This document shows, piece by piece, positions 1,213 through 35,100 of a DNA stretch of 64,000 nucleotides. Position numbers and translations under genes: made by a program. The stretch covers positions 496,001 to 560,000 of the forward strand of contig NW_020844818.1 of the NCBI RefSeq assembly GCF_003704095.1, given 5' to 3'. How positions within the stretch are numbered: position 1 is the first letter of the stretch; each line of letters starts with the position of its first letter. This stretch comes from Pocillopora damicornis. Taxonomy: Eukaryota. The notes under the pieces are model-generated. The model did not search any database, had not been told where the DNA came from, and saw only the letters and a list, made by a program, of their open reading frames with translations.

Positions 1213-4200
1213 TTATCTCTGGCCTACTTCTGGTGTCTTGTAAACTGGTGCATCTGATTTGGGTAATGGAGGATTTCCCAGGATGATGTCAGCTGCCTTC
1301 TCTGCAACCATAACAGTTGGTCCATTGAGATTTCCACTAACAATACTTGGCATGATTGATGCATCAACAACTCTCAAATTCTCCACTCCAAACACCTCTG
1401 TTTTGTTGTTGACAACGGCCATTGGGTCATCTTCAGAGCCCATTTTGCAGGTGCATGATGGGTGATAAGCAGTGTCAGCATTCTGTCGTACCCAAGCATC
1501 AATTTCTTCATCAGTTTGGACATTGTCACCTTAAGGGTTAAAATTAAAATATTATTTGTTGCAGAGCATGTTCAATTTGTATCCTATGTTCTATGTACAA
1601 TGATATATAACAGAAAATAATTTGTTTCCTCTATTGATAGATGTTTAAATTTTTTTGTACTGTACCTGGCTGTAGTTCTTTTCCACGAAATGGATCAAAA
1701 GCTTTTTGGCTAAATACCTCACGCGTAAGTTTAATACTATCTCTTAACTCCACTCTATCCTCTTCAGTAGACAGGTAGTTGGGTTGGATGATTGGATGGT
1801 CATAGGGACTGGTTGACTTGATCTTCACATACCCACGACTTGTTGCCCTCATGGAGCCAACATGGACCTTAAAAAGAACAAATACATTTTACAACTTGTG
1901 TCATGCGAAATATAGAAACATGAAGGAAATGTTTAAAATTGAACATAAAAAGGAACATACACTACACATGGTGGCAGACTTTCATCTGTCACTTACTTGA
2001 AAAGCTTCTTTTTCTACTGTCACTCTACCATGATCTTTAAATGCAGAGGGTAGAAAGTGGTACTGGATATTTGGATGTGACATTCCCTCCCTGCTGCGAA
2101 TGAAGCCACCAGCCTCTAGATGTGCAGTGGCACATGGTCCTGTCCGAGTGAGGAACCATCTGACACCTATTGGAACCATGTTCCACCATTTGAGAGAGCG
2201 GTACAAACTTAAAGGTTGTGTACATTCCTGAAACAAGATTACAGAAGAGAAGCAAAATCTATATAAGGTTACTAGACAAAGCTTCCTCCTCATGGTGTCA
2301 CTGGATGTCTGAGAGCTGTAAGTTTTTCCAAAACTCTGGGGTGCCCAGCTCTTCTAAACTTCCATTAAAGAAAATTTCAACAATTTGCTAAAAGAAAAAG
2401 TAAGTTGCTAGACTTCTGCTAGAGCCTAAGAGAGGCTTGGTGCTCATTAAAATTTTGGATCAATATCAGTATCTGGGCAACTGCCCACCTACCCCTCCCT
2501 TAAGTTGTTGTCAATTGACTGTTGTTGGGTTAGGGGAGGGGTAGGTGGGTAGTTGCCCAGATACTGATATTGATCCAAAATTTTCTTCCTAGAGGCTGAG
2601 GTGAGCACTTGATTGAATGAATGCACTATGTCATCACCAATTGTTCCTCACCACCTCACGGTCAACTTTCTACATGTAGGATAGGTGGAGAATAATTTAC
2701 AAACCTGGTGGAAATACATCTCCAAATGATCTTGAAAGTTTTGCCCTACACCAGGAAGGTGAACATTCACAGGAATACCAAGCTTTTTTAAATCATCTGC
2801 ATTTCCTATACCTGACAGATTTAGGATCTGAGGTGTATTAATTGCACCAGAGGTTAAGATAACTCCCTTTCTGGCCTGGGCACATTTCACATGACTGCCC
2901 TGGTGGTAGACAACACCTGATGCACGATTCTTTTCAAATACTAATCTAGTTATCAGTGTTCTTGTCTCTGTGCGAAGGTTTTTACGCCTCAGTGCAGGCC
3001 TCAAGTAGGCATTCGCTGTATTCCACCGGAATCCTTTATGAATTGTCATGTCCATCCATCCAAACCCTTCCTGTTGGTAGCCATTCATGTCATCTGTGAA
3101 GGGATAGCCAGCTTCAACACCTGCATCGATAAATGCTTGGTACAAAGGGTTGTTTGATTTACCACGGGATACATGAAGAGGTCCACCACCCCCCCTGTAA
3201 TCATCTGAACCTAAAAAAGAAAATGCAAGTATTGTTTGCTTGTCAACAGTATGACCTCTGCAACAGCTTCGCATAGTATCAAATTCAACAAGAAACATGT
3301 CTCTTGTAGACGACTTAAAAGCCTTTTGAAAATTTTAACACCATACATGTATTTCCTTGAAAGTTCCCTAGTGCTTTTTTAAAATTTTGGCCTACAGGAA
3401 GAGCACTCAGTGGAAGGAGGGTGCTCAACCAAGTGGGGTGCTTATTAGGAAACTATTAACCTGTACTGATCCTGCTGAAGTTGAGGCTTAAAAAGTTATT
3501 TAAAAACAGGCAATAGAAAAAGGTTTTCCTTGAATCTCTACTATCTGAGAAAATAAGGGAGGAAATGGGGATGGCAATTAATTGAAAGGGGCTCCTCTTC
3601 CATATTATAAGCTAGGGGGGGTAGGTGCTTGTTTGGAGGGCACTTATTAGAGTGTGGACATCCCAGTATAAGTAAACTCTATGTGAAAAGGACTTTTTAC
3701 ACATTCCCATTTCTTCTGTGTCAGGTCAATCTTTAGCGCTACAACATAGGGATTTGACATTGATATGTAAATAGCAATTCTCTCTTAGTTGCTCCTAGGA
3801 GTAAAAGGGCTAACAATTCCTTATTATAGAATTGTGGACTTTTGTTAGCTTACCTAGTTCATGAGTCTGAGATTTCCTGAAGTATGGCAAACAATCTGCA
3901 TATGACCATCCTTCTGCACCTTCCTTCTCCCAGCGATCATAATCATAAGCATGGCCTCTGATGTACACCATTGCATTAAGGGATGAGGATCCACCCCATA
4001 CCCTCCCTCTGGGTTGATAGATCCGCCTGTATGGGTAACAGGGTAACCAATTTCACAAAATTTTACACAACAGATACACATATTTTAGAAAAAAAGAAAA
4101 TTTAAATACCAATTTACCTATTATCCATAAACTCTTGAGGTTCTGTTTCATAATACCAATTATATCTATTGTCGCAAAGATTATAAATAAGAGCAGCTGG

Positions 4201-5190
4201 CATGTGGATCTTCCACGTCCAATCTTTTGGTCCGGCTTCAAGAAGAAGAACTTTGTTTTCACCACTAGCTGATAGACGATTGGCAAGAACGCAACCAGCC
4301 GATCCAGCTCCACAAATAACGTAGTCATGAGATGAGGAATATCTTGTGATACCAGTCCCAGTTAGGAAACATTTTTGCTGTACCATTGGTCTATGGACTT
4401 AAGGATAAAATAATGAAAACCATACATTGAGATAAGTCAAAGATACCCATGATAATTATCAATATCTACTTAACCATTTCACTTCCAAGATCCAATTCCC
4501 TATATATTGCTTATAGTTGTGGTTTTGAGAATTTAATGTTAATAAAGCAATATCCCTGTGCTGATATTTTCTAGCTTTTTGTTGCCTTACTGTTTACAAA
4601 TGTATGGATATCAAGGAGAAATTCCTTGTTGGTCATTCCTGGGTGTAAACAAGTTGAGAAATAGATTCCATGTTGCTGTACACAGATGATGGCAAAATGT
4701 GGTGAGAACAAAAAAGTGGTGCACAAGTCCACTTCCGTTATCATTATGGAAGAGATGTATACAGAATAGAATCAAAATGTTATCAAAAAGGAAAATGTTT
4801 TCAATGGTGACTTCAATGATGTATGCAGCTGTCATCCAAAAGATGACTTATCAAACTGGGTGTATAATTCAGTGCATTATATAATGCAGCCGTTACTCTG
4901 TAGACATCACCTGTAGTAGTGTAATGTGACAGCAATCAACATCTTCACCCATAACATTGCATGAGCTGAGCCCTAACAACTGTTACAGGTTATGATCCTT
5001 ATTGACAGCCTTGCATATTGCTTAATAAATCAATGTCCATCAGTAGGAGTTGTGAATGGTCACAGTGGCAATAAAATATGGGAACAAAATTAAAGAGCAA
5101 GTTAATATTCAGACACATACCTTTTATGAAATGAAATGAAGGTGCAAGGTTTCTATAGAAACATCTTTTAAGCATCAAGAAAGACGCCAT
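1213..5190 (-). CDS. CHDH: Choline dehydrogenase, mitochondrial (GMC oxidoreductase), canonical copy
   Basis: Exons 5190-5121, 4397-4118, 4026-3854, 3210-2705, 2227-1997, 1867-1666, 1529-1213, all GT-AG and in phase. Basic N-terminal presequence [16 protein letters not shown] motif [55 protein letters not shown]. Confidence 0.93.
2451..2582. mobile_element. Palindromic hairpin MITE in a CHDH intron
   Basis: aattttggatcaatatcagtatctgggcaact...agttgcccagatactgatattgatccaaaatt: near-perfect inverted arms of ~50 bp. Confidence 0.85.
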
Positions 5191-7641
5191 GAAATTTGCC
5201 TTAAAAAGGAGAGATGGTAAAATAGTTTATTTCATAGATAAATTAGATACTCAGCTCTACTCAGGCATATAACTCTGAAGTACAGTAGTACATAAAAATC
5301 CTCTAAGCCTTGGCTGACTGAAATAAATATACCATATCATAAACAGAAATGAATTATGTTACATTTACCTCATTTGAGATGTAATATAATCTACCAGTTC
5401 TCTACAATAAAAAATTTTGCCCTCAAACACAAAGCAGAGAAAAATGACATGATATAATATCACCCCTAAATCACATATTAAGGCCACGAGAATAAAGAAA
5501 ATGACCACCAACTAGAGCAGCTCTTAATTTTTTTTAACAAATTCTCCTTGTCAGCACTTTAGGAAATGTATAGAGAATAGTATGGAGAATTTGGATAACG
5601 TTGTGAGGATGTGAAGGGTAAAAGGGAAACAGTGATTTCCCGGCGAATTATGCAATCCTACAAATGCATGCAAGAATCAGCTCGTGGATTCTATTTAACG
5701 TAAATATCTTAGGACGGGAGAGACTTTGAAGGCTCTTTTTCTGTTGAAAAATCGTGTTGGCACATTTAAAGTGCTCTGCTCATTCACCTTACAGTGATCG
5801 TCAAGGCTGAGTAAAACCACTGACCTACAGCTAGAGATCGCTCCCGAAAATCTCATTTGCACATGGCTTAACTACAAGAGAAGAGCGCCTTTGCCGGCGT
5901 GATTTTTAAAAATTGCTAAGGTATTTTTATATCCAGACGGATATTTACCTGAATTTGCAGCCAGACGGTATAAAAACGTAAAATCAATCGGTAATTAACC
6001 CAGAGACGAACTATACAGCGGTAGGCGTTCGGAGCTGCGCCCGCTAAAGACTAGAACTTAATAAGGTTGAAAGACTGGTAACGACTTCCACTTTGATTTG
6101 AGATAAAATAAAAGTTTACGGTCATGGTACGACACAACATGATTGCATTTTAGAATACTAATATTTACCACTAGAATAAAGTTCTTGATGAAGTATTCTT
6201 CAGTAGTGGTATCATAAAGAGAATTTATCGAGGTTGACAATAATAAACGAAATCGGTCAGCGGAGTATCACGTATGTAAAATGTGTTCGTATATAAAGAA
6301 GGAAAAAATCCAGATCTATAAAATGTTGACTTTATTGAGTGTTCAGACTTCAGCGAGTTTTTTTTACATAGTTGAACTTTTCTTAGTGCGCCATTATCCA
6401 TCGGAGGTGGAGATTTTCGGTGACAGCAATGACCTTACAGGCCCTCCATTCGACAAGCTGTCAATTACGTAGCCGCGAAACGTGTGCCGGACATATTCCA
6501 TACACCCGGCAGATGTCGTCAGTTATAAATCAAAGTAATTTCGAGATGAAAAAGGTTTTTTCGATCGTTGATCATGCTGAGTATCGTGACTGGAAATTTC
6601 AAAAACCGCTGGCACAGGAGGCGGCTCCCACCCCCTCCCGTTCCTAAAGACTCGTACCGCACCTCCTCCTCGTCAGTTTATTTTTCTCCCAGCAGCTTTT
6701 AACATTTTCGGTTTGTGACTGCAACAGGTGCGGAGATCGGGTACAATTTGAGCTAACCGAGGTTAGTATTCTCTGTTTGCCCTCTACCTTCTTCCATTGA
6801 AACGATGACCAGATCCGCCAGGCGAAAAGATGTGATTACGGCGATATTAATCATTTCTACCATCTCCTAATTTGAGAAATGCAAATATTTCATAATACTC
6901 GTAGCAAACTCGGCCTTTGGTCAGGGCCTTTGGTCAGGGTGCATTGGCACGATTCAGTCCTCCTGCCTCGTATCTAGTCTCATGGTGTTCCCAATGTGCT
7001 AAAACTTCCGCTGTTTGATGGTGAACTGTACAGATCTGATTCAGGAGGTTGCGTGACATTACGACGCAGACCTGAAGCCCATATTTTCATAGGGATCGAT
7101 ATTGAACAATTCTAATACAGAAGACACAGTGTGAGTTTGAAAGAGATTTCCGGGTTTTACATCAGATTTGTATCAGACACACTCAGAAAAAGTACAAATA
7201 AGAATCTTCTCCAAACGTGGAAACGCTTTTAAAGAAGCTTCCACCAGCAACATCAATATCGGTCAGCAGATAGAGTGGCTAGAGGAAGCGAAGAGTTTCA
7301 CCTCCCTTAACACAGCATGATTCACTCCGGCGGCCCTTTGCCTGTACTTCTTTAGCTCTCTTAGGATAACAGATATGTTTTCATCATGTTCAGGATATTA
7401 TATACTCAAAAAATTTACATAAGCTTCTGCCCATACGATGTATACAAATCATATTGCGTTACGCGAAAAAATGACCCTGTAATGTAATTGTTACGTGACT
7501 TTTGCCTACATAAAACCTGGATAAGCAACGCCGAAAACTTCCTTGTAAGACAAAATATAATCTATCAATTTGGCATTTCTTTGTATATTTTGCATTCCTT
7601 TTCAGATGAGGCAATGAGATATACTTGTGTGTTCTACCACG

Positions 7642-10600
7642 ATGGCTTCTTGGGCGAAGGTCAAAACACTGTTTTTCACGAGGCCATTTCTCATACTCTG
7701 TAAGACGAATCATAAGCCTCAACAATCTTTGCAGTTGATTTTTGTAATATTGTGCTTATCTCGAAGCAATCAAGCTTAATTCAAGTAACCTTACTCATTT
7801 TTGGTTATTTTCAGTCGAACACGTTAGCTTCCAGCGACGATGTTTTCAGTCCACTGTAAAGTTTTCTTCATCTTACGACTATGTCATCTGTGGAGCTGGA
7901 TCTGCAGGGTGTGTCCTTACCGATCGTCTGTCGGCCAGTGGTGAAAACAGAGTTCTAATTCTTGAGGCAGGACCAAAAGATTGGACATGGAAGATCCACA
8001 TACCAGCTGCTGTCAAGTATAATCTTTGGAATGACAAATACAACTGGTATTACGAAACGGAACCACAAGAGTTTACGAATAACAGGTAATACAGTTTTGG
8101 AGTGTTTTAAGCACCAAGCTTAGTCAAACATAAAACTATTGAAGGACAATAACAAAGATAAGTCATAAGCTGGTGTTCGTAAACTTCCCCCCCTCCACCT
8201 GTGCCGTCAAAAAAAGTGATATAAAATCATAAAACAATAAAGCAAGTCCCTGCCTCAAACAACTAACACGCTACAGGTATAGAGCCCCATACTGGAAAAT
8301 CACTCCCACCTTCCTGCAAATTGCTGCCCAATGAAACAAAATTTAGAAAAATAAAAGGATATTTTGCTTGCTCGTTGTCCACCAGCATTTGAGATTGAAG
8401 TAGTCGAAACGAAGTTTCAAGGTTTTATGTTTCACTCATAAGATACCAATTTCCTTCCATACAGGCGGATCTATCAACCCAGGGGGAGGGTATGGGGCGG
8501 ATCTTCGTCTCTAAATGCAATGGTGTACATCAGAGGTCATGCGTATGATTATGATCGCTGGGAGAAGGAAGGTGCAGAAGGATGGTCATATGCAGATTGT
8601 TTGCCATACTTCAGGAAATCTCAGACCCATGAACTGGGTAGGTGTTCACTTCATTTTTCGACTTCCACTGTATATTTTTATTCTTGGAGCGCCACATCCC
8701 TTTTATCCTGGTAGCGCGCGTCATGACCAACCGTAAAGACCTAACATCGGACAAACAGGGATTAAAAGTCTCTATTTTCTAAGTCTCAGTAAGGCACCAC
8801 AGACGTTTCCTTATTGAAGCTGGGATACTGCGATATTCTCGTTTTCTTTAGATGATGATTTGCAAAAGCTTCGTATTCCTGTGATGACTCGTCCTTCCGG
8901 TTTCGTTTGCAATCTTGAAGATCTTTTGCGCAATTTTTTTTATAGTCTTGTCGCGAGAGATAAAAGCATTCTAGGCGATGTAAAACCTATTCCGTGAGGG
9001 ACAAAAGTTCTTTATTTACTAACACCGTTACCTGATACCCCTAATAGGTAAAGGAGGTTGTTGTTACGCATGCTGCTGTTGTTTTTGTTTCAGAGGTCAT
9101 GTAATGGACAAGTTAACAATTTGATCATTCTTGCTTGTAGGCCCAGATGATTACCGAGGAGGCGATGGACCGCTCCATGTATCCTGTGGTAAGTCAAACG
9201 GTAACCCTTTATACCAAGCATTTATTGATGCTGGTGTCCAAGCTGGTTATCCCTTCACAGATGACATGAATGGCTACCAACAGGAAGGGTTTGGTTGGAT
9301 GGACAAGACGATCCATAAGGGAGTACGATGGAATACAGCAAATGCCTACCTCAGACCTGCACATAAGCGCAAGAATCTTCAAACACAAACAAGGGCCTTG
9401 ACCTTGAGAATTTTGTTTGAGAACCACCGTGCTGTAGGAGTGGAGTATCAGTTGGGCAATGAAATAAAACGTGCTGGGGCCAGAAAGGGAGTTATCATAG
9501 CTGCTGGAGCCATTAACACACCACAGTTACTGAATTTGTCAGGCATTGGGAACGCAGTTGATTTGGAAAAGCTTGGTATTCCTGTGAAGGTTCATCTTCC
9601 CGGTGTTGGTTACAATCTTCAGGATCATATGTCTGTGGCTTTTATGCAGGTATGTAGTATTTATCAAGGTATTCCGGAGAGTGCTATGCAATCTTAAGTT
9701 ATCACACCACTGCTCTCTTGTTTCAGGAGTGTACTCAGCCCCTGACGCTTTACCGTACTCTGAAGTGGTGGAACATGATTCCAGTAGGAGTGAAATGGTT
9801 CCTCACAAGGACTGGACCATGTGCAACAGCACACAAGGAGGCAGGTGGCTTTATTCGCAGCAAGGAGGACATATCGCATCCTGACATCCAGTTTCAGTTT
9901 GTGCCTCTGGGGTACAAAGATGACGGTAAAGTGATATTCCAGAGGGATGCCTTCATGGTGGGTGGAAGATAAGCTCTTAGGATATCATGTAAATTTTCAG
10001 GCGTATTTCCTATAACCCTTTAAATCCTAAGGGTGACTGGCTTTCACATGATTTCTCCTAACGTAAAAGGAAATGATCATTAATTCCAGTAATTCCAGAA
10101 GTTTATGATTGTCAAACAAATTCTCCTTGTCAACGCCCTAGGAAATATATAGAGAATAGTATGGAGAATATAGATACTGATGTAATGGTGTAAAGGGTTA
10201 AGCTGTTGTGTTGTGTTTTTGTCTATTTAACGTTTTGTCCATACTTAAGAGGAACTAACACAAGACTTTCGTGGCTGGCCACAAAACTTGGTTTTCTTTT
10301 GTTCATACTGAATATTAAACCAAGTAGAATTTATCCTTTCTTCATATTTATCTGGCTATGAGTAAAAAAACTTTCTCTTGGAGAAAATCTTGAGAAGAAG
10401 GAAATTACTTTGTCAGTGTTGCTACACTTCCTGATTTTCCGCCAATTTCAGTGCGGCACTATAATACATGGTAGTCTTTTTAAAAAATAATAGTTATGAA
10501 AACGTTCTGAACGCTTCTGTTGATCACGTTGTTTTATTTCCTTACGAGATTCACGTTGGCACCTTACGTGCTACAAGTCGTGGATATGTAAGACTGAAGT

Positions 10601-11403
10601 CCACAAATCCATGTGATCATCCCAGTATCAACCCGCGATATCTGTCCACTGAAGAAGATCGGGTGGAGCTAAGAGATGCTGTTAGACTTACCAGAGAAAT
10701 AATCAGCCAACGGTCTTTGAAGCCATTTTGTAGGAGGGAGTTAGAACCAGGTACTTACAGTGAAAAGATATGATAGGTATAAAATGCTTTGTTTTAGCAG
10801 ATATCTCAGCAGGTTTTAGGGTCTTACTTTCCATGAGAATTAACTAAAAAAATAAAAGAAGCAGACCACTACCACATCAAGGCACCTTTTAGACCACTTG
10901 CTCACTAGGCGATCCATGTGTGCATCCTTCGGTTTGTTACACTTTTGATTCCCTATTCCTTCTATAGACATTCTCCTTTGATCTCCTGTGACTGGCTGCT
11001 TGAAGTTTGTTCTTAATAAAAGTTTGTTTGTTGAGGTGTCTCGCACTTGTTGGTGTGAAATGCTAAATTACAGTATGTTTGTTTGTACGCTTACAAAGGT
11101 GACCATGTTCAGACAGATGAACAAATTGACGCCTGGATACGACAGAACGCCGACACTGTATATCACCCATCATGCACCTGTAAAATGGGTTCCGAAGATG
11201 ACCCAATGGCTGTTGTCAATAATAAAACGGAGGTATTCGGTGTGGAGAACCTAAGGATTGTCGACGCATCAATCATGCCGAGTGTTGTGAGTGGAAATAT
11301 CAATGGACCAGTGATAATGATCGCGGAAAAGGCTGCAGATATAATTTTAGGAAATCCCCCTCTTCCTAAATCGAGAGCACCAGTGTATAAAAAGCCAGAA
11401 TAA
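7642..11403 (+). CDS. Choline dehydrogenase-like GMC oxidoreductase, paralogue 2
   Basis: Exons 7642-7699 ([19 protein letters not shown], gtaaga donor), 7815-8085, 8465-8637, 9141-9649, 9727-9957, 10549-10750, 11099-11403. Intron positions match copy 1 and the nucleotide sequence is very similar. Motifs [23 protein letters not shown]. Confidence 0.88.
8725..8925 (+). pseudogene. Decayed duplicate of CHDH exon 4 inside intron 3 of paralogue 2
   Basis: 8854-8922 translates [23 protein letters not shown], matching [23 protein letters not shown] / [23 protein letters not shown]. Upstream [11 protein letters not shown] resembles [11 protein letters not shown]. Confidence 0.65.
10013..10201. mobile_element. 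TTAA-flanked (piggyBac-like) MITE
   Basis: taaccctttaa...taaagggttaa termini; internal motifs (atttctcct, aaattctccttgtca, gagaatagtatggagaat) shared with more than 15 copies in the window. Confidence 0.75.
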
Positions 11404-13128
11404 AAAAAGTTTTAAAATATATGTGCTGGCTTTTTGACGTAAGAATTAAAGTAGGTATATTAGTGGATTTTTAGAACGTATAAGGATCGTGATTCCAGTC
11501 GAAACAAAGTTTGTCCAGCTGCTCCAGTACCTTATGGAAGAAAATTCTGTTTTGAAAAACACTTCGAAAAAACAATTTCGAAAAGAATGAGCTATCTACA
11601 GGTGCAATTAGTTCCTTGCTGTTTGAGGATAAATAACGAATCTATTTTAGTTGTTATGGTATTGTTAATACGATCTTTGCAGCTAACTTATGAGTCGAGC
11701 AAATTATCCTGTAAATTTTAAAACAGTGAGCACGTGAACCGTTTGTCGTTTCTGCACTCAATTCATCATTTAGAATTTGCAAGTTAATATATGGGACCGT
11801 GTCATCGTTCAAGTTTCTCACCCACTTTTTCAAAGCTTTGTTACTCTTCCTCATGAGCATCAAACGATGATATCTGGAGGAAAAATAAGATCGAAGGCAG
11901 CTCGTCCAAGTGAAGTTGTATAGCATGGAAAATAGACTTCAAAAGTGGATAGAAGTGAGCTTTTCACTGATGAATTCGAAGCTCCTGTACTCTTTCAAGA
12001 CTTCTTGAGGGACGACCTGCTACTGAGGTGGAAACGATCAGCAGAGTTGCAGCTGCGTTTTTTGGCGCGAAAATCCGATGAGTGCCGATAGATTTCGACT
12101 CTCAACCAATCAGAAACGATTACTTAGAAACCAAGTGAACACTGCTTTATCTTTCCATGATTTGTACTCCACAAAATAAATAGAACATTTATTTTTTTCT
12201 TGCTTTTGATGAACTACTTACCAGTCTATCATAAAATTGAAAGAATTGGAGAACCGGTGACAAATCAGTGAACTGTTTTTTGGACGTTTAGCGATAGAAA
12301 GACTGGAAACTAGTACCTAAAGTTTACATGTTCTTAGAGGTCCAATGAAGAGTGAAAAATGAAAGTTGCTGTATTTTCTTAAAAATAGAGTGTTTTACAT
12401 ATATTATGAACGGCAAATTCAATTTCATTTTGACTGCAATGAACCGCTGATTCACTTTCGGTGGTATGTCGTGACATCAACCCGTGACATTCTTCTGTGA
12501 TATTGGAAAATTAAAGTCGTTGACTCGACAAAATTAATACACTCCTGCAGGTGCAGGGGTTCGAGAAATCCAGGATAAAATTTCAGCTATACGTTGACAC
12601 GAGCAACAGTGATCTGGCGTTCAGATAGCGATAAATTTTGGTGCTTGACGTGCAAAACTTATTAAGGTGAGTCTGTACAAAACTTATCAGCAGGGTGAGT
12701 ATGTACAAAAAGCGAGAAAAATCGCCAGAATCACGGACCTTGCCGCAGGGTGTAGTTAGGGTCAATTGAGCCTATGTTAAAATTTAGACCTGTATCTTAC
12801 AATCTATTGATACAAGACTTGCCTTTAGTGGACGTTTGCTCAAAGTGTAAGCGAGCACTTAAGAGGTAACTGCAAAGTCTGCGGGGATAACTTAGGGATC
12901 GAGTATTGCAGTAGACCTACTCTAGATACACAACCCCCATAAACAGATACAAATTATTACATGGACTAAATAAACTTCTGCATCAACCTCTCCCCCCCTT
13001 CCCACCCTTGTTCGAAAAAAAAGAAACACAAGGCAATAAATAAGAGTATCTAGAGGTAAGTATGAAACTAATGGACCATACTAGACTATGGTTTTTAACA
13101 CTTCCTTATTTTGTTGCAGGTATTGAAC

Positions 13129-16100
13129 ATGAACAGGTTTTCCTTGGGGTTTGTTCAGAGCACTTATAAGGTATCCAGAAAAAAATTTACCTGGAAATTG
13201 ACTGGTTAGTTTGAAGCCAATTGAAATCTTATCGATATGGTTAATTTCCTTAAAGATAATCTTCAATGCAAAAATTACACTCCTCCCATCACACACCCTT
13301 ACCAATCAAACATGTAGAAGAGGGTGGATGGAGCCATCCCTGATTGACATGAGTTGACCCTATGTTAACACATGAAGGATTTGATGCACTACACAAGATA
13401 AGATGCATGTTACAGGTTGTGACATGGCATGGGGTATGGTCAGGAGGTAGCCAATTTGGATTGTTTCAGGTTTAAATGAATTGCACTTTCTCTGTGATAA
13501 CTGCATAAAGAAGTTCTAAGGCAAAATAAAGTTTTAGTACATTCATTAAGCTTAAAGAACCCACAATTAGAATATTTAATAAGGTGAGGATAACTTAATG
13601 TTCAGTAGTGAACTGTCAGGGAAATTTGGAAAATACTGCGGAGATAACTTGTGATGAGTGTAAGCCTAAGCATACAGTTGAATGAGCAAAAAATATGCCA
13701 TGGAAAGTAACCCTGCCAAACCATGTGGCCCCATGAGGTAAAGCGTACATTATCATGCAGTGAAATTTATTGTTTCTTAATCTAACCAGGAGGCCAAGTG
13801 ATACAAAGATACTCTAAGTCAACCACATCATTTTCCTCCACCCATGAATACATTATCATTGGTGCGGGATCAGCTGGGTGTGTTCTGGCCAATCGGCTGT
13901 CAGCTAATCCAGATTTAAGGGTACTCCTCCTTGAAGCTGGACCATCAGATAACACATGGAAAATACAGATGCCAGCAGCCATGTCATATAACTTAGAATA
14001 TGACAGTCACAACTGGTTCTATACATCAGAGCCTCAGCAATATTTAAAAAATAGGTGTTAAAACAAATTTAATTTTCTTTTCATTTTCACACCATTGCTA
14101 ATCATAACAGTAATTCACTTGGTGATTCTGCAGTCCAACCAAGATCTGTTAACCCTTTAACTCCCAAGATCGGATAGTTCCTTCTCCCTCTAGCTGCTTG
14201 ACATTTCCTTCCAAAAAAGTTACGAGAATTTAATGTTAGATCAAGATGACAACCTATACCTGATAAGTTTGAGTATTCCTATTACCTGTTTGCTGGATAG
14301 TGTATGGATATTGTAGTGAGAAGTTACATTTTAATCACTTCTGGAAGTTAAAAGGGTCAAGGAAGTAGGATGGTAGGAGCCTGGGGAAAAATGGGGAATA
14401 TCATGGGAAAGATGGATGGGGGGGTGCAGTATTGAAATTGGACTTAAAGTGGGTTAACCAGCTCTTGACCCTCATGTAGATTTGGTTAATAAGCCACAAG
14501 TGTTTATGTTTCTAGTCTGAAATTATTTTTGGTTTTCAGATTTTCTCTTTGTCTCATGCCCAAAGCAAATGAATTTAACATATATTGTTGTCATACAGAA
14601 GAGCCTACAAACTTCAGTCTCTCTTTCTCCTTCCCTGCTCATTGGTTTATCATGTTTTGGATACCCAGATCTCAGCTGAATTGAAAATCTTGATTGAAAT
14701 CTCCCAATAGTCCAGTTTGCAGTTGTGTGCTTGGTCACCAAGCCTTTGAACAAGAGTGAGGCTAAGGGTGACCTTGTTACAATACAAATGGTGCTGCTTT
14801 TTAAAAGTAAATTTTTTTGTTATCGTGCTAGCTAGATACTGGTCTCTGTCACAACAAGGTCACCTTCAGCCTTGCTCCAAATCAAAGGCTTGGCAACTAA
14901 GTAAATAACTATAAAATGGCCTATTGGCTGTCAGAGGACTGGGCAAGTGATGAGTAGAGCAGTTGAACAGTGCGTTAATTTATGGGTTTGATTCTCACTG
15001 GAGGCTTTTTAGCTTTAACTCACACTCACCAGAGATTTATCAATCTATCAAAAAATAATTTTTAGTGAACTCAAATGGCTGCTCTTCATGTATATTGCAG
15101 GACTATTTACCATCCAAGAGGTCGTGTACTGGGCGGGTCCTCCTCAATAAATGCAATGATTTTTGCACGCGGACATGCGTTTGATTATGACAGATGGGAT
15201 AGGGAAGGTGCCACAGGATGGTCCTATGCAGACTGTTTGCCTTACTTCAAGAGGTTGGAAAGATACGAACATGGTATGTTTGTGTTTACCACACAAGGAC
15301 TTGATCACCTCTATGTCTTACCCAATAAGTTTTTTGCTTTTAGCAGACACTTTCATGTCAAGCGGTGTTTGTCTTCTCAAATACACTCTTTGACACAAGA
15401 TGAGAGAAAAAAATTAATCTATTTGGATTTTGTTGGTCTAAAGCAAATAAAATTATCTTAAATTATCTCAGTTACCCAGCAAAATGCACTTTTATTCGAT
15501 ACAAAGCACTCCTTTATAAACCATGCACTATCTAAACTAAGGCTGTTAGGTGGAGACAAGCAGTGTAACAGAAAAATGTTTTGCTCAAAAATGCAACACC
15601 AGTGACCACACCGAGGACTCGCACCGAACCTCTCAATCGGTTTTCCGACCCTTCTCCGGCCGCTGTGTCTACCTCATGGACATGACGCGAGTTTCTATGT
15701 TTAGGTGCTAGTCAGTATCGTGGAGGAAGTGGACCAATGCGAGTGTATCGTGGAACACATTCTAATCCTCTACACCACGTCTTCATCGCTGCGGGTGTAG
15801 AGGCCGGTCACCCATTTACAGATGACTTCAACGGTTATCAACAGGAAGGAGTTGGCTCACTGGATCGTACTATACACGAAGGGAAGAGATGGAGTGCCGC
15901 ATCCGCTTATTTGAAGCCAGCTCTTCCTCGGAATAACTTAACGACCGAGACCAGAGCACTGGCAAACAGAGTGTTGTTTGAAAACGGTAAAGCTATCGGA
16001 GTAGAATATCGGGTTGGGGATTCAGTGAAACGAGCACGCGCCTCTAAAGAAGTCATCCTTTCTGGTGGAGTAGTTAATTCTCCACAGTTACTTATGCTGT

Positions 16101-16322
16101 CTGGGATTGGGGATGAAACAGAGCTGAAGTTGCTGGGAATACCTATGGTGGCAAAGTTACCAGGAGTGGGAAAAAATCTGCAAGATCACGTCCAAGTGTA
16201 TGTCCAATATGTAAGTAATTAGCACCAGATAACCTACATGATGTAGAGATCTTGAATGTATTTTAGGAATGTAGAGCATTGCACCATTCACTGGGAATTT
16301 CAGGCCTTAAGTCGTTCAAAGT

Positions 16323-16367
<45 letters not shown>

Positions 16368-18404
16368 ATAACAGGGTAATTTAGTGTTATCAACTGAGCT
16401 GACTGAGTTGACTGAGTTAGCCCTTCATCAGAGCGATCGCTCTGACGAAGGGCTAACGCTCGAAAAGTCAGCTTTTAAACTTCTTTACAGTGGCCAATTA
16501 ACGTTATCAACTTAGTTGATGATACCAAATTACCCTACTTAAGTTGTCACCCTGTTCACAGTGGCTTATGATCATCATCATCATCCTCATCGTTATTATT
16601 GTTATCATAATTATTATTGGTATCCCTGTTACATTTTATTACTAAAATCTAACTCGATTGGAAATAATTTTTATGACTACGAACACAACAGGAAAGCCTC
16701 AAGCCAGTGACGTTGAACAGTACGTTTAAACTGCACAACATGATACGAGCTGGCCTACAGTGGTTTTTATTCAAGAATGGAGTGTGTGCCTCTAACCATT
16801 TTGAGAGCGGTGGGTTCGTTAAAAGTGATCCCAGCGTGTCACACCCCGATATACAGATGCAGTTTGTTCCTACTGCGATGAAAGAGGCGGGCAGTTCTGA
16901 GATTATTCAACATGGATACCAGGTAAAACTGTCGACAGTCCTGCTTTGAAAACGAAAGAGTTGGCAACCAAAGGAAAAACGAATGGATATAGGGAAAGGG
17001 AAGACGCAAGTTTCGCAGCTTGTTATTTTTTGTTGCCGAGTTCGCATCAATTTCTCACCAGAGACTTCTGAGAACAGGCTTATAGGATAATTACCTTCCT
17101 GATGGATTCTCTTTCAGGTTTGTGCTGAGATTCTTAGACCCAGCAGCCGGGGCTTCGTGAAACTGCGATCACGTGACCCACTTTCCCATCCTGTCATTCA
17201 ACCAAACTATCTGTCACGTGACAGTGATCGTCGCCTAATGAGGACCTGTGTGCGAATTGCACGTGATGTACTCAACCAGAAGGCCTTTGAACCTTATAGA
17301 GGAAAACCGATAAAACCAGGTTTGTATAGGTAACAGTACGATTTAGAGTGCAATTTAAAGTGCATAAGCACGAAAAAAATTTTCAGATACCAAAATTTGT
17401 AGTCTTGAAAAATAAATTTCATGAAAAACGCATCACAGAAAGTCAAAACGTAAGAAATTTTGGCAGCGCGCTATTTATAATTTTCACTCGTTTACAACTT
17501 TGCACTCGTGTCACATGAAAAATGCATCGTTTTCAGCCAATCAGACGCGCGTAATTTTTTCATGTATTTTATTAGATGATTTATATGTATCTTGTTGCAC
17601 TTGGCGTTGAATTATTTCTTAACCCTTTAAACCACGAGAGTGACCTGAATGTAATTTCTCCTTCCAATAATAATGCTGAAGCAAACGTCAAGACCATGTG
17701 AGTAAAGGAAATGATCACCAACTCAAGAAAATTTAATTGTTAAACAAGTTATTAAACCTTTTTGTCAATACGAAAGGAAATTTATAGAGAGGAGTATGGA
17801 GAAGAGTGGTTACTGATGTTTGAGTGTAAAGGGTGTAAGGACCGGCAGTCATTTTTTATCTTGTGGGGGAGGGGATCGGAGAATTTTAGGGAGAACATAT
17901 GGTTTTCATGGAGAACAGAGCGGGGGGTGGGGTTAGTAGTCGCTAACAGAGTATAAGGGCGAACTAAAGCCATGTTACCAAGCAAAATAAGGACATCTTG
18001 ATAATCTTTATGACCTACCCTTGAATCCGTTACACCCTAGTTATTTTACTGGACCCTGGAATTCTAGAAAGATAAATTTTAAACTTGATTTTTTCCTCTC
18101 AGCTAAGACTTGTGAAACCGAGGACGAAATAGACGCTTTCGTTCAAGGATACGCTAAGACTGATTACCATCTCTGTGGAACGAACAAGATGGGAGCCGAA
18201 GATGACCCGATGGCTGTTGTCGACGCGCAAACTCGTGTCTTCGGAGTCGACAATCTCCGGATCGTGGATGCGTCTGTATTCCCCAGTATAGTTAGCGGTA
18301 ATCTTAATGCTTCTACGCTCATGATGGCGGAAAAAGCCGCAGATTCTATTTTGGGGAAGTCGCCATTGCCTAAGGAACACGTTCCAGTATATGGCACATC
18401 ATGA
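13129..18404 (+). CDS. Choline dehydrogenase-like GMC oxidoreductase, divergent paralogue 3
   Basis: Exons 13129-13204 ([25 protein letters not shown]), 13790-14054, 15101-15273, 15705-16210, 16692-16922, 17118-17319, 18103-18404. Same intron phases as copies 1 and 2. Motifs [40 protein letters not shown]. Confidence 0.9.
14149..14360. mobile_element. TTAA-flanked MITE, second subfamily
   Basis: ttaaccctttaactcccaagat...gaagttaaaagggtcaa; closely similar to 31734-31945 and 51270-51471. Confidence 0.75.
14706..14925. mobile_element. Inverted-repeat MITE
   Basis: aatagtccagttt...cttggtcaccaagcctttga...gaggctaagggtgaccttgtt is mirrored by aacaaggtcaccttcagcct...tcaaaggcttggcaactaag...aaatggcctatt. 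Confidence 0.7.
16322..16536. mobile_element. Penelope-like inverted terminal remnant containing a hammerhead-like core
   Basis: gggtaatt...gttatcaactgag and cccttcatcagagcga|tcgctctgacgaagggctaacgctcgaaaagtcagc...gttgatgataccaaattaccc. Related copies at ~24510-24745, ~32398-32550 and ~50015-50108. Confidence 0.6.
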
Positions 18405-23355: not shown

Positions 23356-26009
23356 TTACTTTCCAGTCAAGTGGAGTGCGCCAGCCCCAGCCCCATAGCC
23401 ATATCCTTTGGGTCCGAATAGTTTGCCATAGCAGCCTCTACAGTACACTTGATCTGGAAAACAAATAGGAACTTTGTTTGAATTTATCCTTTTCCGTGAG
23501 GCCTGGTATTGGAAGACAAAAACCAGGCATCTCATTAATGGAAGACAACTACATGCATATCATTACTGCATGGTGCTGAGCCATGACCACTACAGTAAAT
23601 TTAGTGGATGTTCAGTTTTAAATAATGAAATAAAGGCAAAAAAAAACCCCTCAGTGCTGAATAGCATTTTTAAAAAATTAACAGATCAAACAAACAGTAT
23701 GAATAACAACATACCATCATGCTCATTGAATGAGCCACTGTCTAAGGACTTGTTGCAAGTGGGCTTATTGTTACAAGTGAAGCATCGTTTGTGATACTTG
23801 TTTTTTCCAGCTATAACTTGCTCCGCTGCATAGACACGGTCATTACAACGAGGACACCGTCCTACATGTACATGATAAAATAAATGAAATTGTTGAGTTT
23901 GTGTTTAATCGCAAAATATCTTAAATATAATATCTCCATAACAAGCACAATGTGCTTGCAATGTGAGAGTGAATTGTGAGACACAGTGGTTTAACCCTTT
24001 AAACCCTAAGAGAGACTAGCATCTAATTTCTCCCTACAATATCACTCCTGAATCATACACTCAGGACATGAGAATAAAGGAAATGGTCACCAGGGAAGGA
24101 ACCCTTTGATTGGCAAACAAATCCTCCTTGTCAGTGCCTTAGAAAACGTATAGAGAACAGTGTGGAGAATATGCACACTGATGTTAGGGTGTAAAAAGGG
24201 TCAACATTTACTGTGCTGGTCTGCAGATCGAGGGGTCTGAGTTCAAAACCTGGCTTAGTCATATCTTCCATTTTTTGACAAGAAACTTCATTTTCTCAGT
24301 GCCTCTCTCTCCCCAGGAATTTAAAGAGGTAACGGCAAGCTGTCATAGAATCATAGTGCAAAGCTGGGGAAGTGGCAAGGGAGTGGGTAAACTGCACTGC
24401 ACTACCACCCCATCCTGGGGTCGTAGAAATACTCCTTGTCTCTTCATGGTGGGGAAACAAGGAAATGTCAAACAGGGTAGGCCAACTGGTTCCAAAGAAT
24501 AATAGAGGCAAGTTACCAAGGAAACTGTTGTGCTGCATTGGTTGGTGAGTGTAACAAAATAATTTGGTGTTATCAACAGATTTGATAATGTACATTGGCC
24601 ACTGCAAAGAGCTTCAAAGCTGATGTTTCAAATGCAAGCCCCTTGTCATGGCTCTTATTTAGGGCTAACGCTCAATATGTCAGCTTTGAAACTCCTTACC
24701 ATGACCAATTTACATCATCAACTCAGTTGACAAACCCAAATTCCTTAGTTCAAGTGTTGACTTTACCTTAAAAGGCTGCAATACAACCTCAATTATTAAA
24801 AAAAAAATTTCAAGGCAGAAATGCAATACTCTTGTTCACTTCATGCTGCAGAAAGCCAGGATAAGCTCTTACAGCTATAGAAGTTGTCTTACAAGCGGAA
24901 TATTTTGAAAACAACTGATTGAGTAAACAAAATGATGAGTTCTGGATGACAATGTGCATGGATAACCCAATGCCTATTAAATTAGAGATGTTTGTTTCAC
25001 ATCTGGCAAGTTTGAATTACAAAAGAATCTGACTTAAACAAGGTAGTTAAAAAAAAAATTTTACCATCATTCTGAGTCTACAAAATACATCACCATACTT
25101 TCTGGTGCCAAAAAATTTGCCTAATAGCTTAAAAATATTTTTTGTTTCTTCGTCTCATCAAAAGCTTGGAATAAAGAAAAGTAAGAGTCCTCAGATATCA
25201 TAGAAAATGCTGACTGATGAAACAGCAGGACAGACAAGACACTGCTACTTCATTGTAGAGAGAAGGCATTTAAAGAATGCAATGAGGGATTCTAGACTGT
25301 TCTGTGAAGCCACGCGAAACAAAAGAGTTCAGACAAGTATAACTATAGAGCATGCATCCTTAATTTTACATGTTCTGGTGGGTGATCAAGAATTCTTTTA
25401 GAAGAAAATGGCTACCCGGGATATACAAATAAACAACAATTACGGAGCTGTACAACTACGCATCGGTTTATGTCCATAAATAAACCATAACTTAAACAGT
25501 TTTTTAGCTTCTTCGACTTCACATTCGTCTACTCGCAACTTGGTCACGAAATCGCTCCAAACTACAGTGGTTTTGTTACAGTTACCACTAAAGTGTTTTC
25601 CACTTACTGTTGATAGCTCTTGGCGATTCTCTGGTATTAAATTTACAGAAATATGAGTTTTCTTCGGCTTATCGGAGAAAGGAAAAGGAGCTGTCAGCGT
25701 GAGACATCAGTTTCTAATTGCAACTCAGTTGTGTGTTATTTATGATGACCTCGAAAGATTAACAATCGTGTGCCAAAACAATTGTCCCTTTGCTTAGACT
25801 AAATTGCTTTGTGCATGAATCTGAAATTTGATTTCGCTCCTTCGAAGAGAAATCGCACACCGAATTCGTCAAGAAGAGATTAAAGTGAAAAAATGGAAGG
25901 ACGGGCGACGGTTAGTTGCACCTAATCGCAAAATGTACATAGTTATCTAACAAAGCTTCGCTCTTGAGTTAAATTTCAGAAGAAAAAATTAATTTCACTT
26001 ACCAGACAT
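23356..26009 (-). CDS. Single-LIM cysteine/glycine-rich protein (CRIP/CSRP/muscle LIM family), 83 aa
   Basis: Exons 26009-26003 (ATGTCTG|gtaagt), 23861-23715, 23453-23356 give MSGRCPRCNDRVYAAEQVIAGKNKYHKRCFTCNNKPTCNKSLDSGSFNEHDDQVYCRGCYGKLFGPKGYGYGAGAGALHLTGK. LIM ligands plus a GPKGYG glycine-rich tail. Not in the ORF track. Confidence 0.9.
23975..24500 (+). mobile_element. tRNA-derived SINE interrupted by a TTAA MITE
   Basis: gagacacagtggtttaa [MITE 23990-24204] ...gtgctggtctgcagatcgaggggtctgagttcaaaacctggc (B-box-like), followed by a body typical of Deu/Nin-type SINEs (ctctctccccagga, ccatcctgggg...aatactccttgtc). Confidence 0.55.
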
Positions 26010-32150: not shown

Positions 32151-35100
32151 TTAAACAACTATTCTTGCTTCATCATGATGACTTTGGCCAGAGGAAAAGA
32201 TCTCTGCATTCTTCGGTTGTACTTGAATGATGACAATTATCTTTTGAAACTCTCGGAAGTATGTCAGAAAGTAGAGAAGGAAACATATGCTCATCAACCA
32301 TTCACTGAAAGTACTCGCCAGATGGGCATTGTATCCCTGTTATGGTTAAAAAAAAAATGCAATCACAATAAGTTAGAGCAAGAAATATGATTAAAGGGGG
32401 TAAGTTTCTAGAGAAACTGTGGTGTTGTGTTGCTGGGAGAGTACAACAGGGTAATTTGGTTCTATTAACTTAGTTAATAACGTAAATTGGCCACTGTAAA
32501 CATTTTAAAAAGTTGAAGTTTCTAGTGTTAGCTCTTTGTCAGGGCAAATGATGAAGTATCAGATTAAAAAACAAACAAAAAAAAAGGCACAAGAGACATA
32601 TTTGGATCTAGGAGGATCTCTACAATAAAATCATTGCCAAATGAGCCACAAAATTATACAATCAGAGAATTTCCTCACACATCAATCAACTTGATAGCAG
32701 AATAGGGAACTTCAATTACAAAATCTAGGAAACATCTAAGGCTAAACTGGAGAATGATACTCCTCAATCAGTAAGAACTGGTATTCCCTGTGCACGCAAA
32801 GGATGGGCAAGTGATTTTTCTGAGCACTTACATCATCTGTTTTGTTCCACTTGAGTTCAGCAGCCATGTCACTCATGTTCTTATGCTGTTCTTTGTATGC
32901 TACTGAGGCGGCACCTCCAGCCGCTAGTGCTATTTTCAAAATTAATTTAACATCAAGGACAAAATCAGCAATAATTTGTCTTGGCATCAGATCTTAAGTT
33001 TCCTAAAACCCTCTGCTTAACTCATGAAGCTACAAAAATTGGAATTACTAATACTAACTTGATCTGCATATTGGAGCAAGGATAAAAACAGCTTCTATAC
33101 TTGAAGACTGCGTGCATGAAAGACTAGCATAGCTTCAAGAGCTTAACCCAGTAACTGTGCCATACAACAGAAAGGAATATTGCCACTCGTTGTAGATAAT
33201 ATGGGAATGATAATGGGAACAATGGGCATTTAGCAGTGGACATCCCACGAGGTAGCTCTTCTTGTCCACTGTTTCCAGGTTGAATTGGAATGTGAAAAGT
33301 TAGTATTTCTGGAGGGAAGAAACCCAGAAGACTAGGAGAGTAAACCTCAGAGCAAGGATAAGAACCAACAAAAAACTCAACCCACGTATGGCAACAGGTC
33401 TGGGAATCAACCCAAGGCCAGAGCAGTGGGAGTTGAGTGGTATCACCACAGCACCATCCTGCTCTCCTCATTTTCTAGTCTACAATTTAGTTGAACTTTT
33501 ATGACATTTTGCTGGTACTTATAAAAACTCAATGGCCTTTTAAGGTAATATGTATTATGATCCTGACCAACTGTCTAAGCTATGTTTCTGATCTAGTATA
33601 CAGTGCACTGTGATTATGAACTCACACTGCACATTCCATCTCACTGACATGTGGATAGCAAAGTTTGATTTAACTGAAAGAGGATACTGATGATAAAGAA
33701 CACAGATATGAGAGCTGAAAGAATAAATCTGGTGCAAGAGCTAAGGGCAGAGCTTGTTGCCTGATTTCGCATTAAATGGGAAATAAAGGCCTGCATCCAG
33801 CAGTACAGTGTCCCTAAACCAAACACCATGATAGCGCCTGTCAAATGTGTTGGCAAAGAATTTGTCTCCTATAAAAGAACAATAGCAATCTATATCATTA
33901 CACTGTCAGTAATTGAAAGAGTGTTGGGAAGATTGAGAAATGCCTGCCTTCATAAACATCAGGCCCCCTTTTTTGTGACAATTATTTTATAGTTTTTATC
34001 TTTTTGAAGTATCCAAGCAGGCCTGGCCCATAACCAGTCCAACTTCTTACAATACAGACCAGTGTCTGGAGTTTTTTTCTCTTCCATTCCAGCCAAGAGG
34101 AAAAAAGCAAACCAGCAGAAAAAATAAACAAGTTACTAACCAATCTAGTTCAATCTGTATGTAAAAAAACAAAAAAAACCAAAAAAAAAAAAACCAACTG
34201 TGCCTTCAAGCCTTGGACTGTACTCAAGATATCAGCCACAGTTTTTTTCCCCTATCAACTTTCCAGATGGTGTCTTGAACTATTAAAATACCTCTCTCTT
34301 GCCAAGAGGAGGAAGTGATATTCATTTTATTTAAAACCAGATGAATTGAACTTAGGTGTTGATCAATTTGAAGCTTCAACACCCCTCCCCCCCCCTCCCT
34401 TCTTCAAGTGCTCCCACCCAAGTGCTGAATTAGCAACTGTGCAATTCTTGTGGACCTCTTCTTCTGAGCCATCTGCTCACAAAAGTGAACTTTCTACATT
34501 TATACACTTCCACATTAGAGGATAAAACACATTCATTTAGTGGGAAAGCAGTTCTGGTTCAAATTCTCCACCACCCTGGAAAGGTTCAAATTCCCCACCC
34601 CCCTCCAAGGGGGGAGGGGTACAAGGGATGTTGAAGCTAGATTGCTTTTTTTTATGTTGATAATGGTAATTGTCATGGGGAAAATTTCTCAACACATCAC
34701 TTGTTTTTACTACAATTTTCTTCAAAAAAGAACAAGTTAAAAAATAAAACAGTTCCCCAAATGTGTTAAACAAAAATTGGATTTCACAAAAATAATGGGG
34801 TTTTGCCCACAATAACACGCCCTTGATAGCAACTTAATAATTTCAGTACTCAGATCTTGCCTAACTTACTTGAAAATTTGCAACCATGGAGAGACCCAAG
34901 CATGTAAAGGCTGCTATCCACAAGGACCAATAGTTAAGATTCGAGATTATCGGCATGTCTGTGACATTGGATTCTCTTACATGTCTGTAGTGGATATACA
35001 TTACTACAAATGCTGCAAATTAATCAAACAATAATCTAAAACATTTATGTCAAAGATGGCTCTTGCCAATATTGGGATTTGAAAAATCTGACCTGAAAGT

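Follow-up and report, generated by a model that had tools for sequence, protein, structure and literature searches.

We analysed a window of 64,000 nucleotides from the coral Pocillopora damicornis (NCBI RefSeq assembly GCF_003704095.1, contig NW_020844818.1, positions 496,001 to 560,000 of the forward strand; all coordinates below are counted within this window), and identified three intact seven-exon paralogues of choline dehydrogenase (CHDH), side by side within 1213-18404. Copies 1 (minus strand) and 2 (plus strand) are arranged head to head, and copy 3 follows copy 2 in tandem. An original prediction from this sequence, drawn at 9600-16922 and so taking in only parts of copies 2 and 3, held that these two copies had lost their choline-binding residues. 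The gene models are:

1213 to 5190, minus strand: CHDH copy 1, canonical choline dehydrogenase; exons 5190-5121, 4397-4118, 4026-3854, 3210-2705, 2227-1997, 1867-1666, 1529-1213
7642 to 11403, plus strand: CHDH copy 2; exons 7642-7699, 7815-8085, 8465-8637, 9141-9649, 9727-9957, 10549-10750, 11099-11403
13129 to 18404, plus strand: CHDH copy 3; exons 13129-13204, 13790-14054, 15101-15273, 15705-16210, 16692-16922, 17118-17319, 18103-18404

All three genes have GT..AG introns at identical places and in identical phases, with no internal stops, and encode proteins of 592 (copy 1), 582 (copy 2) and 584 amino acids (copy 3). The copy 1 protein is identical to a P. damicornis record (P0243), and its spliced joints are present in RNA contigs. 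For copy 2, five of the six introns were seen as GT..AG joints in RNA contigs from four runs of one study, with the joint between exons 4 and 5 recovered in a second study too; no copy 2 contig bridged intron 3. Exon 1 of copy 2 (7642-7699) was located through its likeness to the Stylophora orthologue (P0121, 90% identical to copy 2), ruling out a copy 2 without a start exon, and the 7699-7815 spliced joint occurs in two of the four runs. Copy 3 is 99% identical to the full-length proteins P0001 and P0183, and two studies each yielded one RNA contig linking exon 4 with exon 7, the interval between them (about 430 bases) being the size of exons 5 and 6 together. Open frames, splicing and orthologues rule out pseudogenes or mis-assembly. 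Searches of the 234 Mb assembly with the CHDH exon and with PF05199 gave these three copies and no other gene among the matches listed; three is a minimum count. We additionally observed a 5' non-coding exon near 6730 (window 6730-6760, 5880-6300) joined to the first coding exon of copy 2 in RNA contigs; the starts of copies 1 and 2 lie within about 2.5 kb, and a bidirectional promoter may be common to both.

All three proteins contain the GAGSAG motif for flavin adenine dinucleotide (FAD), and score above the cut-offs of PF05199 and PRK02106 (cut-off 605). Against TIGR01810, a BetA equivalog model built for prokaryotes (cut-off 732.1 bits), copy 1 scores 786, and copy 3, through P0183, falls below at 709. 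The N-termini of the three copies (39-46 amino acids, with 6-8 Lys or Arg and 0-1 acids) are basic and acid-poor, as in mitochondrial presequences, which they are predicted to be. AlphaFold predicts confident GMC folds for a copy 3 allele and for the Stylophora copy 2 (predicted local distance difference test scores of 94.3 and 91.9), and the model of a copy 3 orthologue matches choline oxidase with a Z score of 50.4 and a root-mean-square deviation (rmsd) of 1.7 over 504 residues. Full-length identity is 75.9% between copies 1 and 2, 55.2% between copies 1 and 3, and 52.9% between copies 2 and 3.

We mapped the three proteins onto choline oxidase (PDB 2jbv/9ugm) by HMMER alignment. The six motifs quoted in the original prediction (QDHLE and QYHFLP in copy 1, QDHMS and QFQFVP in copy 2, QDHVQ and QMQFVP in copy 3), together with YH and SGN.N in all copies, are present as given, and the alignment upholds the mapping that had been made by eye. 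In copy 1, E338, L380, H400, G424, A508, H510 and N554 correspond to Glu312, Trp331, His351, Asn378, Val464, His466 and Asn510 of choline oxidase, and its C-terminal half pairs DHLE with DHPE and TAYH with TVYH, with Leu for Trp331 in AHLE, His for His351 in QYHF and Gly for Asn378 in VHVG. The catalytic pair His466/Asn510 is retained throughout, as H510/N554 (copy 1), H504/N548 (copy 2) and H507/N551 (copy 3). At the Glu312 position, copies 1, 2 and 3 have Glu, Ser and Gln, respectively; at the His351 position, His, Gln and Gln; and at the Val464 position, Ala, Val and Asp. Thus, copies 2 and 3 do lack the equivalents of both Glu312 and His351 and keep the catalytic pair. The position of His99, the residue that holds FAD covalently in choline oxidase, was assigned from the FAD-contact list of PMC10980864, and is occupied by Leu, Leu and Ile in copies 1, 2 and 3, before the conserved Asn of SSLNAM/SSINAM.

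We identified further substitutions around these positions in both copies. In copy 2, these are:

8015 to 8017, plus strand: Lys87, in the segment matching choline oxidase Trp61/Met62 (from sequence, by range offsets; register uncertain by one residue)
9632 to 9640, plus strand: Ser332 in place of Glu312, and Ala334 in place of a Tyr that 215 of 230 canonical sequences have (alignment)
9835 to 9837, plus strand: Lys374 at the Trp331 position (alignment)
9895 to 9897, plus strand: Gln394 for His351 (alignment)
11158 to 11166, plus strand: Val502-Tyr-His504, with Val at the Val464 position (Ala in CHDH) and the catalytic His retained (alignment)

In copy 3, they are:

16193 to 16195, plus strand: Gln335 for Glu312 (alignment)
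16860 to 16862, plus strand: Gln397 for His351 (alignment)
17121 to 17129, plus strand: Cys419, for a His at the Thr376 position, and a new Glu421 at the Asn378 position (9/9 copy 3 proteins)
18156 to 18170, plus strand: Lys503-Thr-Asp505-Tyr-His507, in which a new Lys lies four residues and a new Asp two residues before the catalytic His (9/9 copy 3 proteins)

Across 18 tabulated positions copy 2 has no acids and two Lys, and its S, A, K, Q, V and K pocket residues are common to Stylophora. In 340 aligned full-length proteins and the best 150 of the 50%-identity representatives, no sequence other than copy 2 and its Stylophora relatives has Lys at the Trp331 position. Copy 3 has gained Glu421 at Asn378, Lys503 at Asn462 and Asp505 at Val464, and its Q335, Q397, C419, E421, K503 and D505 are invariant in nine of nine copy 3 proteins (from Pocillopora, Stylophora, Oculina, Orbicella and further coral sets) that are otherwise 76-92% identical. 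A simple loss of choline-binding residues does not describe these changes, since copy 3 gained two acids and a Lys, and copy 2 gained two Lys. The open frames, the splicing and the substitutions at mapped positions bear out the proposal of intact copies with remodelled pockets, and the alignment points to two likely separate redesigns, basic in copy 2 and polar-acidic in copy 3. Two further sites differ between proteins: an exon 4 site is Met229 in copy 1, Lys in copy 2 and Arg in copy 3 (Met in most canonical CHDHs, Arg in the BetA structure 9lq0), and after the catalytic His (18171-18185, plus strand) copy 3 reads YHLCGTN in Pocillopora and YHPCGTC in other corals.

Betaine contacts in choline oxidase are Trp61, Ser101, Ile103, Trp331, His351, Val464, Tyr465, His466 and Asn510 (PMC10980864); Asn378 and Asn462 lie near the far end of the bound alcohol, and the substitutions H351V and N378S are reported to increase activity towards a non-choline diol (PMC10991250). 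From these two papers only, and with E312 and H351 left out, we drew an unbiased list of 16 pocket positions, and compared it with the other aligned positions. Copy 3 has rare residues at 8/16 pocket positions against 32/422 others (Fisher p=2e-5), and canonical coral CHDH controls have them at 1/16. An earlier form of this test (p=4e-5, 3e-6) was biased, as it included E312 and H351 together with positions added after the data had been seen.

We investigated the origins of the two copies by phylogeny. The stony-coral CHDH clade (100/99) takes in copy 2 together with its Stylophora orthologue. Copy 3 groups with its orthologues (Stylophora, two genes in Oculina, Orbicella and further coral sets) in a clade that has a long stem (0.65) and lies within a cnidarian group at 82/82; its exact place is poorly supported (56/16), and it may have arisen within stony corals or before them. 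Sisterhood of copies 2 and 3 was rejected (approximately unbiased test, p-AU 0.023, on 34 of the 340 aligned proteins), and the His-to-Gln change that the two copies share is therefore probably convergent, as the original prediction had suggested it might be. A Desmophyllum paralogue (P0123), likely an intermediate towards copy 2 and its probable orthologue, has eight derived states in common with copy 2, four of them pocket-side, yet carries Asp312, His351 and Ile331; its His351 also suggests that His351Gln probably arose twice. A quick tree groups P0123 with its own neighbour. The 0/127 count for the Gln holds by construction and is not evidence. P0123 and another coral paralogue, Oculina P0133, have milder pocket changes. 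The tandem of copies 2 and 3 is also found in Stylophora, where a single gene model merges the two; in Oculina, at least four copies share a contig and carry neighbouring locus numbers. No copy 3 orthologue was found in Acropora, Montipora, Porites, Desmophyllum or anemones among the word-index matches listed, which does not by itself establish absence. Horizontal transfer of copy 3 is unlikely, given its six common introns and the lack of a closer non-animal relative in the best 150 of the 50%-identity representatives, a set that did not list copy 3 itself as a representative.

The greater closeness of copy 2 to copy 1 than to copy 3, also noted originally, agrees with the identities; apparent gene conversion in exon 3 accounts for part of it:

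8457 to 8640, plus strand: exon 3 of copy 2, likely gene-conversion tract (94.6% DNA identity to copy 1 exon 3, 83-base exact match)

Synonymous divergence (dS) between copies 1 and 2 is 0.37 in exon 3 against 1.9-3.3 in exons 5-7, and gene conversion appears to have homogenised the FAD-binding exon while the substrate-binding exons diverged. The tract pairs 3854-4034 (minus strand) with 8457-8640 (plus strand) and reaches exon 4 near 9248, with exact matches of 83 and 47 bases; copy 2 RNA contigs break there. It may be asked whether an old, short conversion by copy 3 brought both the His-to-Gln and a Leu-to-Val change into copy 2. The two copies are neighbours on the same strand, copies 1 and 2 show apparent conversion, and both copies 2 and 3 have Q-x-Q-F-V-P. 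However, the surrounding codons differ at several synonymous sites, synonymous change between copies 2 and 3 has reached saturation throughout the exons, the replacements of Glu differ (Ser and Gln), and P0123 of Desmophyllum carries the Val but not the Gln. Leu402, moreover, changes with Glu312 loss in six of six independent pairs (median p 0.03), so that the Val recurs without conversion. We consider such a transfer from copy 3 very unlikely.

We propose that copies 2 and 3 would be mitochondrial FAD alcohol dehydrogenases acting on substrates other than choline. That both prefer non-choline substrates, and came to do so separately, we hold at a probability of roughly 0.6. The chemistry would be unchanged: the His would take the hydroxyl proton, hydride would pass to FAD, the aldehyde would leave, and electrons would go to the quinone pool.

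Several points weigh against this proposal. His351Gln is a tolerated change in choline oxidase, and our literature search found no kinetics for E312Q or H351Q. Glu312 is reported to stabilise the charge of choline, yet has no close contact with betaine in the crystal (PMC10980864). The placing of the substituted residues in the pocket depends on the choline oxidase alignment. For copy 2, rare residues occur at 4/16 pocket positions against 42/422 others (p=0.075, not significant); its Stylophora orthologue, standing in for the window copy, scores 733.8 against TIGR01810, barely above the cut-off, and has an Asp at the Asn378 position. Finally, among the variants listed in RNA contigs from mixed samples (at least 39 coding variants), copy 2 has 12 non-synonymous to 10 synonymous changes, which suggests that it is under weaker constraint; for copy 3 the counts are 5 and 9. 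None of the classified variants falls at a pocket residue.

These observations bear on two other accounts. Copies 2 and 3 might remain choline dehydrogenases of lower affinity or different expression, their pocket changes tuning kinetics, as would accord with the passing of PRK02106 by all three copies and of TIGR01810 by the Stylophora copy 2, and with a HAD-fused protein (P0151) that has His351Gln with Glu312 kept. Whole-protein profile scores are, however, blind to pocket residues; the Lys of copy 2 sits where the trimethylammonium of choline lies, and its Tyr is lost; and copy 3 changed half of the 16 pocket positions and then fixed them. We find it improbable that choline has remained the substrate. 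Alternatively, copy 2 might be a duplicate under relaxed selection, drifting towards loss, with pocket changes of no function. The RNA variant counts and the non-significant pocket enrichment fit such a history, as does the absence of a full-length, transcript-derived copy 2 protein among the matches listed. Set against it are the open frame and correct splicing, the 90% identity and same pocket residues in Stylophora, the eight derived states in common with the likely Desmophyllum orthologue, and dN of 0.06-0.23 in exons 5-7 beside the dS given above; overall dN/dS between copies 2 and 1 is about 0.1. Drift to loss is thus highly improbable.

For copy 2, the absence of the acid and Tyr and the gain of two Lys amount to a charge reversal, from which we infer an anionic alcohol as substrate, a prediction from sequence to which we give even odds. 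Lys374 and Lys87 would replace the acid/aromatic cage and hold a carboxylate, sulfonate or phosphonate; 3-hydroxypropionate, isethionate and hydroxyethylphosphonate are candidates. The two Lys make a sulfonium substrate, one of the classes first suggested, unlikely for this copy. Copy 2 may in addition have shifted to an oxygen-using oxidase making hydrogen peroxide, which would be compatible with the proposal of a non-choline substrate. Its Val502 matches Val464 of choline oxidase, a position that is Ala in 215/230 CHDHs, and V464A and V464T lower oxidase activity (PMC7312611). This is a single residue, however, with no His for covalent FAD, and Val or Ile at this position is common in bacterial GMC proteins of unknown acceptor, making an oxidase shift distinctly unlikely.

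For copy 3, an anionic substrate, also among the original suggestions, is unlikely given the two acids and the Lys gained. We searched for comparable arrangements and found that 28 of 439 motifs (from 533 proteins) combine a basic residue at -4 with an acid at -2, counted from the catalytic His, and that all 28 read KTDYH; the carriers are copy 3 relatives and one bacterial representative, and a second bacterial representative has KTDHH. Bacterial plasmid relatives of the KTDYH/KTDHH type (rhizobial, L004-L006) lie in an operon with a sugar ABC transporter in three of the three loci opened, together with a second GMC protein and a short-chain dehydrogenase, and with a glycerate kinase in two of the three. 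This rhizobial operon is conserved, and an aldehyde dehydrogenase is often present too. In glucose oxidase, K503, D505 and H507 of copy 3 fall on 512, 514 and 516 by range offset (E=1.4, a weak alignment). The catalytic His common to the two proteins anchors this alignment. Arg512 and Asn514 are glucose-binding residues (PMC8537048); of the glucose-binding set considered (Tyr68, Thr110, Asp424, Arg512 and Asn514), Tyr68 and Thr110 are outside the mapping, and Asp424 falls, by range offset, on Cys419 of copy 3, two residues before the new Glu421.

The sugar-transporter context of the K-T-D-H-H proteins favours a polyol or sugar as the substrate of copy 3, which we predict tentatively, at slightly less than even odds. 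Lys503, Asp505, Glu421, three Gln and an Asn would hydrogen-bond the hydroxyls of a polyol, sugar or glycosyl-glycerol. Telling against this, the bacterial family keeps His351 and has Asp312, its three loci are related rather than independent, our literature search found no substrate in print for it, and copy 3 retains Tyr337 and Phe377 with a net gain of acids, which also fits a cation.

Copy 3 might accordingly still bind a cation, with the counter-charge moved from Glu312 to Asp505/Glu421 and another amino, ammonium or sulfonium alcohol as substrate; ethanolamines, homocholine, methylcholine and dimethylsulfonio-alkanols are candidates, and would feed coral betaines or compounds of the dimethylsulfoniopropionate (DMSP) type. 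Several betaines and DMSP occur in corals (PMC7240134, PMC5557254). Beyond the retained aromatic residues, an acid at the Val464 position is found in 0/255 sequences with Glu312 and in 43/75 without it, a very redundant set in which 25 of the 43 are copy 3. On a 64-row tree the acid arose in four changes, all in lineages without Glu312 (copy 3, scallops and a mussel-like group), a suggestive co-evolution with the loss of Glu312; the independent-pairs test gives 3-4 pairs in the same direction and none opposite, and is not significant (p 0.125-0.25). Besides, Lys503 was gained beside the Asp in copy 3 but not in the mollusc paralogues, and K-x-D-x-H is elsewhere seen only in the bacterial sugar-operon family. 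We regard a relocated cation site as somewhat unlikely, and favour the polyol or sugar prediction for copy 3. That the predicted substrate classes of both copies are right together is doubtful.

We additionally identified CHDH paralogues without Glu312 in Pecten, Argopecten, Ylistrum and a mussel-like group, with rare residues at 5/16 and 3/16 pocket positions. These scallop and mussel-like proteins (P0030, P0064, P0053, P0079, P0087, P0115) are independent paralogues with Asp or Glu at the Val464 position; some are HAD-fused, and in one group the conserved Tyr is replaced by Arg. Fusion to (tandem) HAD domains is seen in many CHDHs of molluscs and lancelet, and a related frame lies within the window:

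41102 to 41851, minus strand: stand-alone HAD-family phosphatase frame (DKDGT motif), 42% identical to the abalone CHDH-fused HAD domain (E 3e-61)

The genome search gave no other strong match. The frame lies 23 kb from copy 3, on the same strand as copy 1 and upstream of it. Its product is a putative phosphocholine phosphatase, and the HAD gene and CHDH cluster could possibly be a split ancestral fusion; a protein atlas look-up of the HAD protein returned nothing. Elsewhere in the window, judging from the appearance of their frames, we take 23686-23904 (minus strand) to be a LIM-domain exon, 33641-33868 (minus strand) a DRAM/Frag1-like exon, 48334-49869 (minus strand) a single-exon histidine-phosphatase (MINPP1-like) gene, and 50234-58156 (plus strand) an FKBP/TPR gene. 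Assembly gaps (runs of N) lie at about 21.2-22.0 kb and 22.9 kb.

To our knowledge, animals have been thought to have one CHDH with one job. We found no paper on coral CHDH paralogues or HAD-CHDH fusions among the literature matches listed, a search whose coverage of subscription papers was small; one survey of coral BetA (PMC7240134) does not use 'paralog' or 'duplicat' in its main text. Databases label all such genes choline dehydrogenase, and counts of coral betaine-synthesis capacity may therefore include enzymes doing something else. That two copies with separately altered pockets have been retained across coral families suggests undescribed mitochondrial oxidations, perhaps of reef osmolytes, sulfur compounds or symbiont sugars, and the residue changes lead to a short list of substrates that can be assayed. 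The natural variants (from canonical through the Desmophyllum intermediate to copy 2; copy 3; the scallop and mussel-like proteins) could serve as a map for re-engineering choline-oxidising enzymes, and the HAD link suggests a phosphocholine-to-betaine route in invertebrates. At its broadest, and as a speculation that we think improbable as a whole, robust-clade corals would have evolved two new mitochondrial CHDH-derived dehydrogenases for compounds of the symbiosis: copy 3, which would have converged on the sugar-binding residues of glucose oxidase and would pass electrons from symbiont polyol or glycosyl-glycerol to the quinone pool, and copy 2, a DddA/IseJ-like enzyme for DMSP-derived 3-hydroxypropionate or a hydroxy-sulfonate. 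The CHDH scaffold would then have been repurposed repeatedly (at the least, twice in corals, in scallops and in the mussel-like group), beside an unrecognised phosphocholine-phosphatase partner that is fused in molluscs.

Among known systems, the closest is CHDH/BetA, with the Pseudomonas denitrificans structure (PDB 9lq0) the best PDB sequence match (E 4.6e-181 for copy 1). The fold, FAD motif, catalytic His/Asn and presequence-like N-terminus are the same, and copy 1 is a plain member; 9lq0 and canonical CHDH keep the Glu and His, whereas copies 2 and 3 have neither, with two Lys added in copy 2 and Glu, Asp and Lys in copy 3. Choline oxidase of Arthrobacter globiformis (PDB 2jbv, 4mjw) is 31-33% identical (rmsd 1.7-2.5) and has its Val464 in common with copy 2, but the covalent-FAD His99 is absent from all three coral copies, and copies 2 and 3 have a pocket whose charge is reversed or relocated. 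Glucose oxidase of A. niger (1cf3) and a bacterial K-T-D-H-H GMC protein (UIJ94948.1), at 27% and 42% identity to copy 3, respectively, have a copy 3-like basic residue at -4 and a polar or acidic one at -2 from the catalytic His. Since copy 3 descends from CHDH, any likeness to either would be convergent. For the role predicted for copy 2, IseJ, the isethionate dehydrogenase, is likewise a GMC enzyme. DddA, a GMC relative of BetA that oxidises the anionic alcohol 3-hydroxypropionate in the breakdown of DMSP (PMC4744692), a compound made by corals (PMC5557254), is by its description a precedent; copy 2 itself is 76% identical to CHDH and arose inside corals. Finally, in the insect GMC cluster, tandem duplication led to new substrates, as in ecdysone oxidase and glucose dehydrogenase (Iida et al. 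2007, PMC1891103). The insect genes have no special affinity to CHDH among the GMCs, whereas the coral copies come directly from CHDH, with its introns kept.

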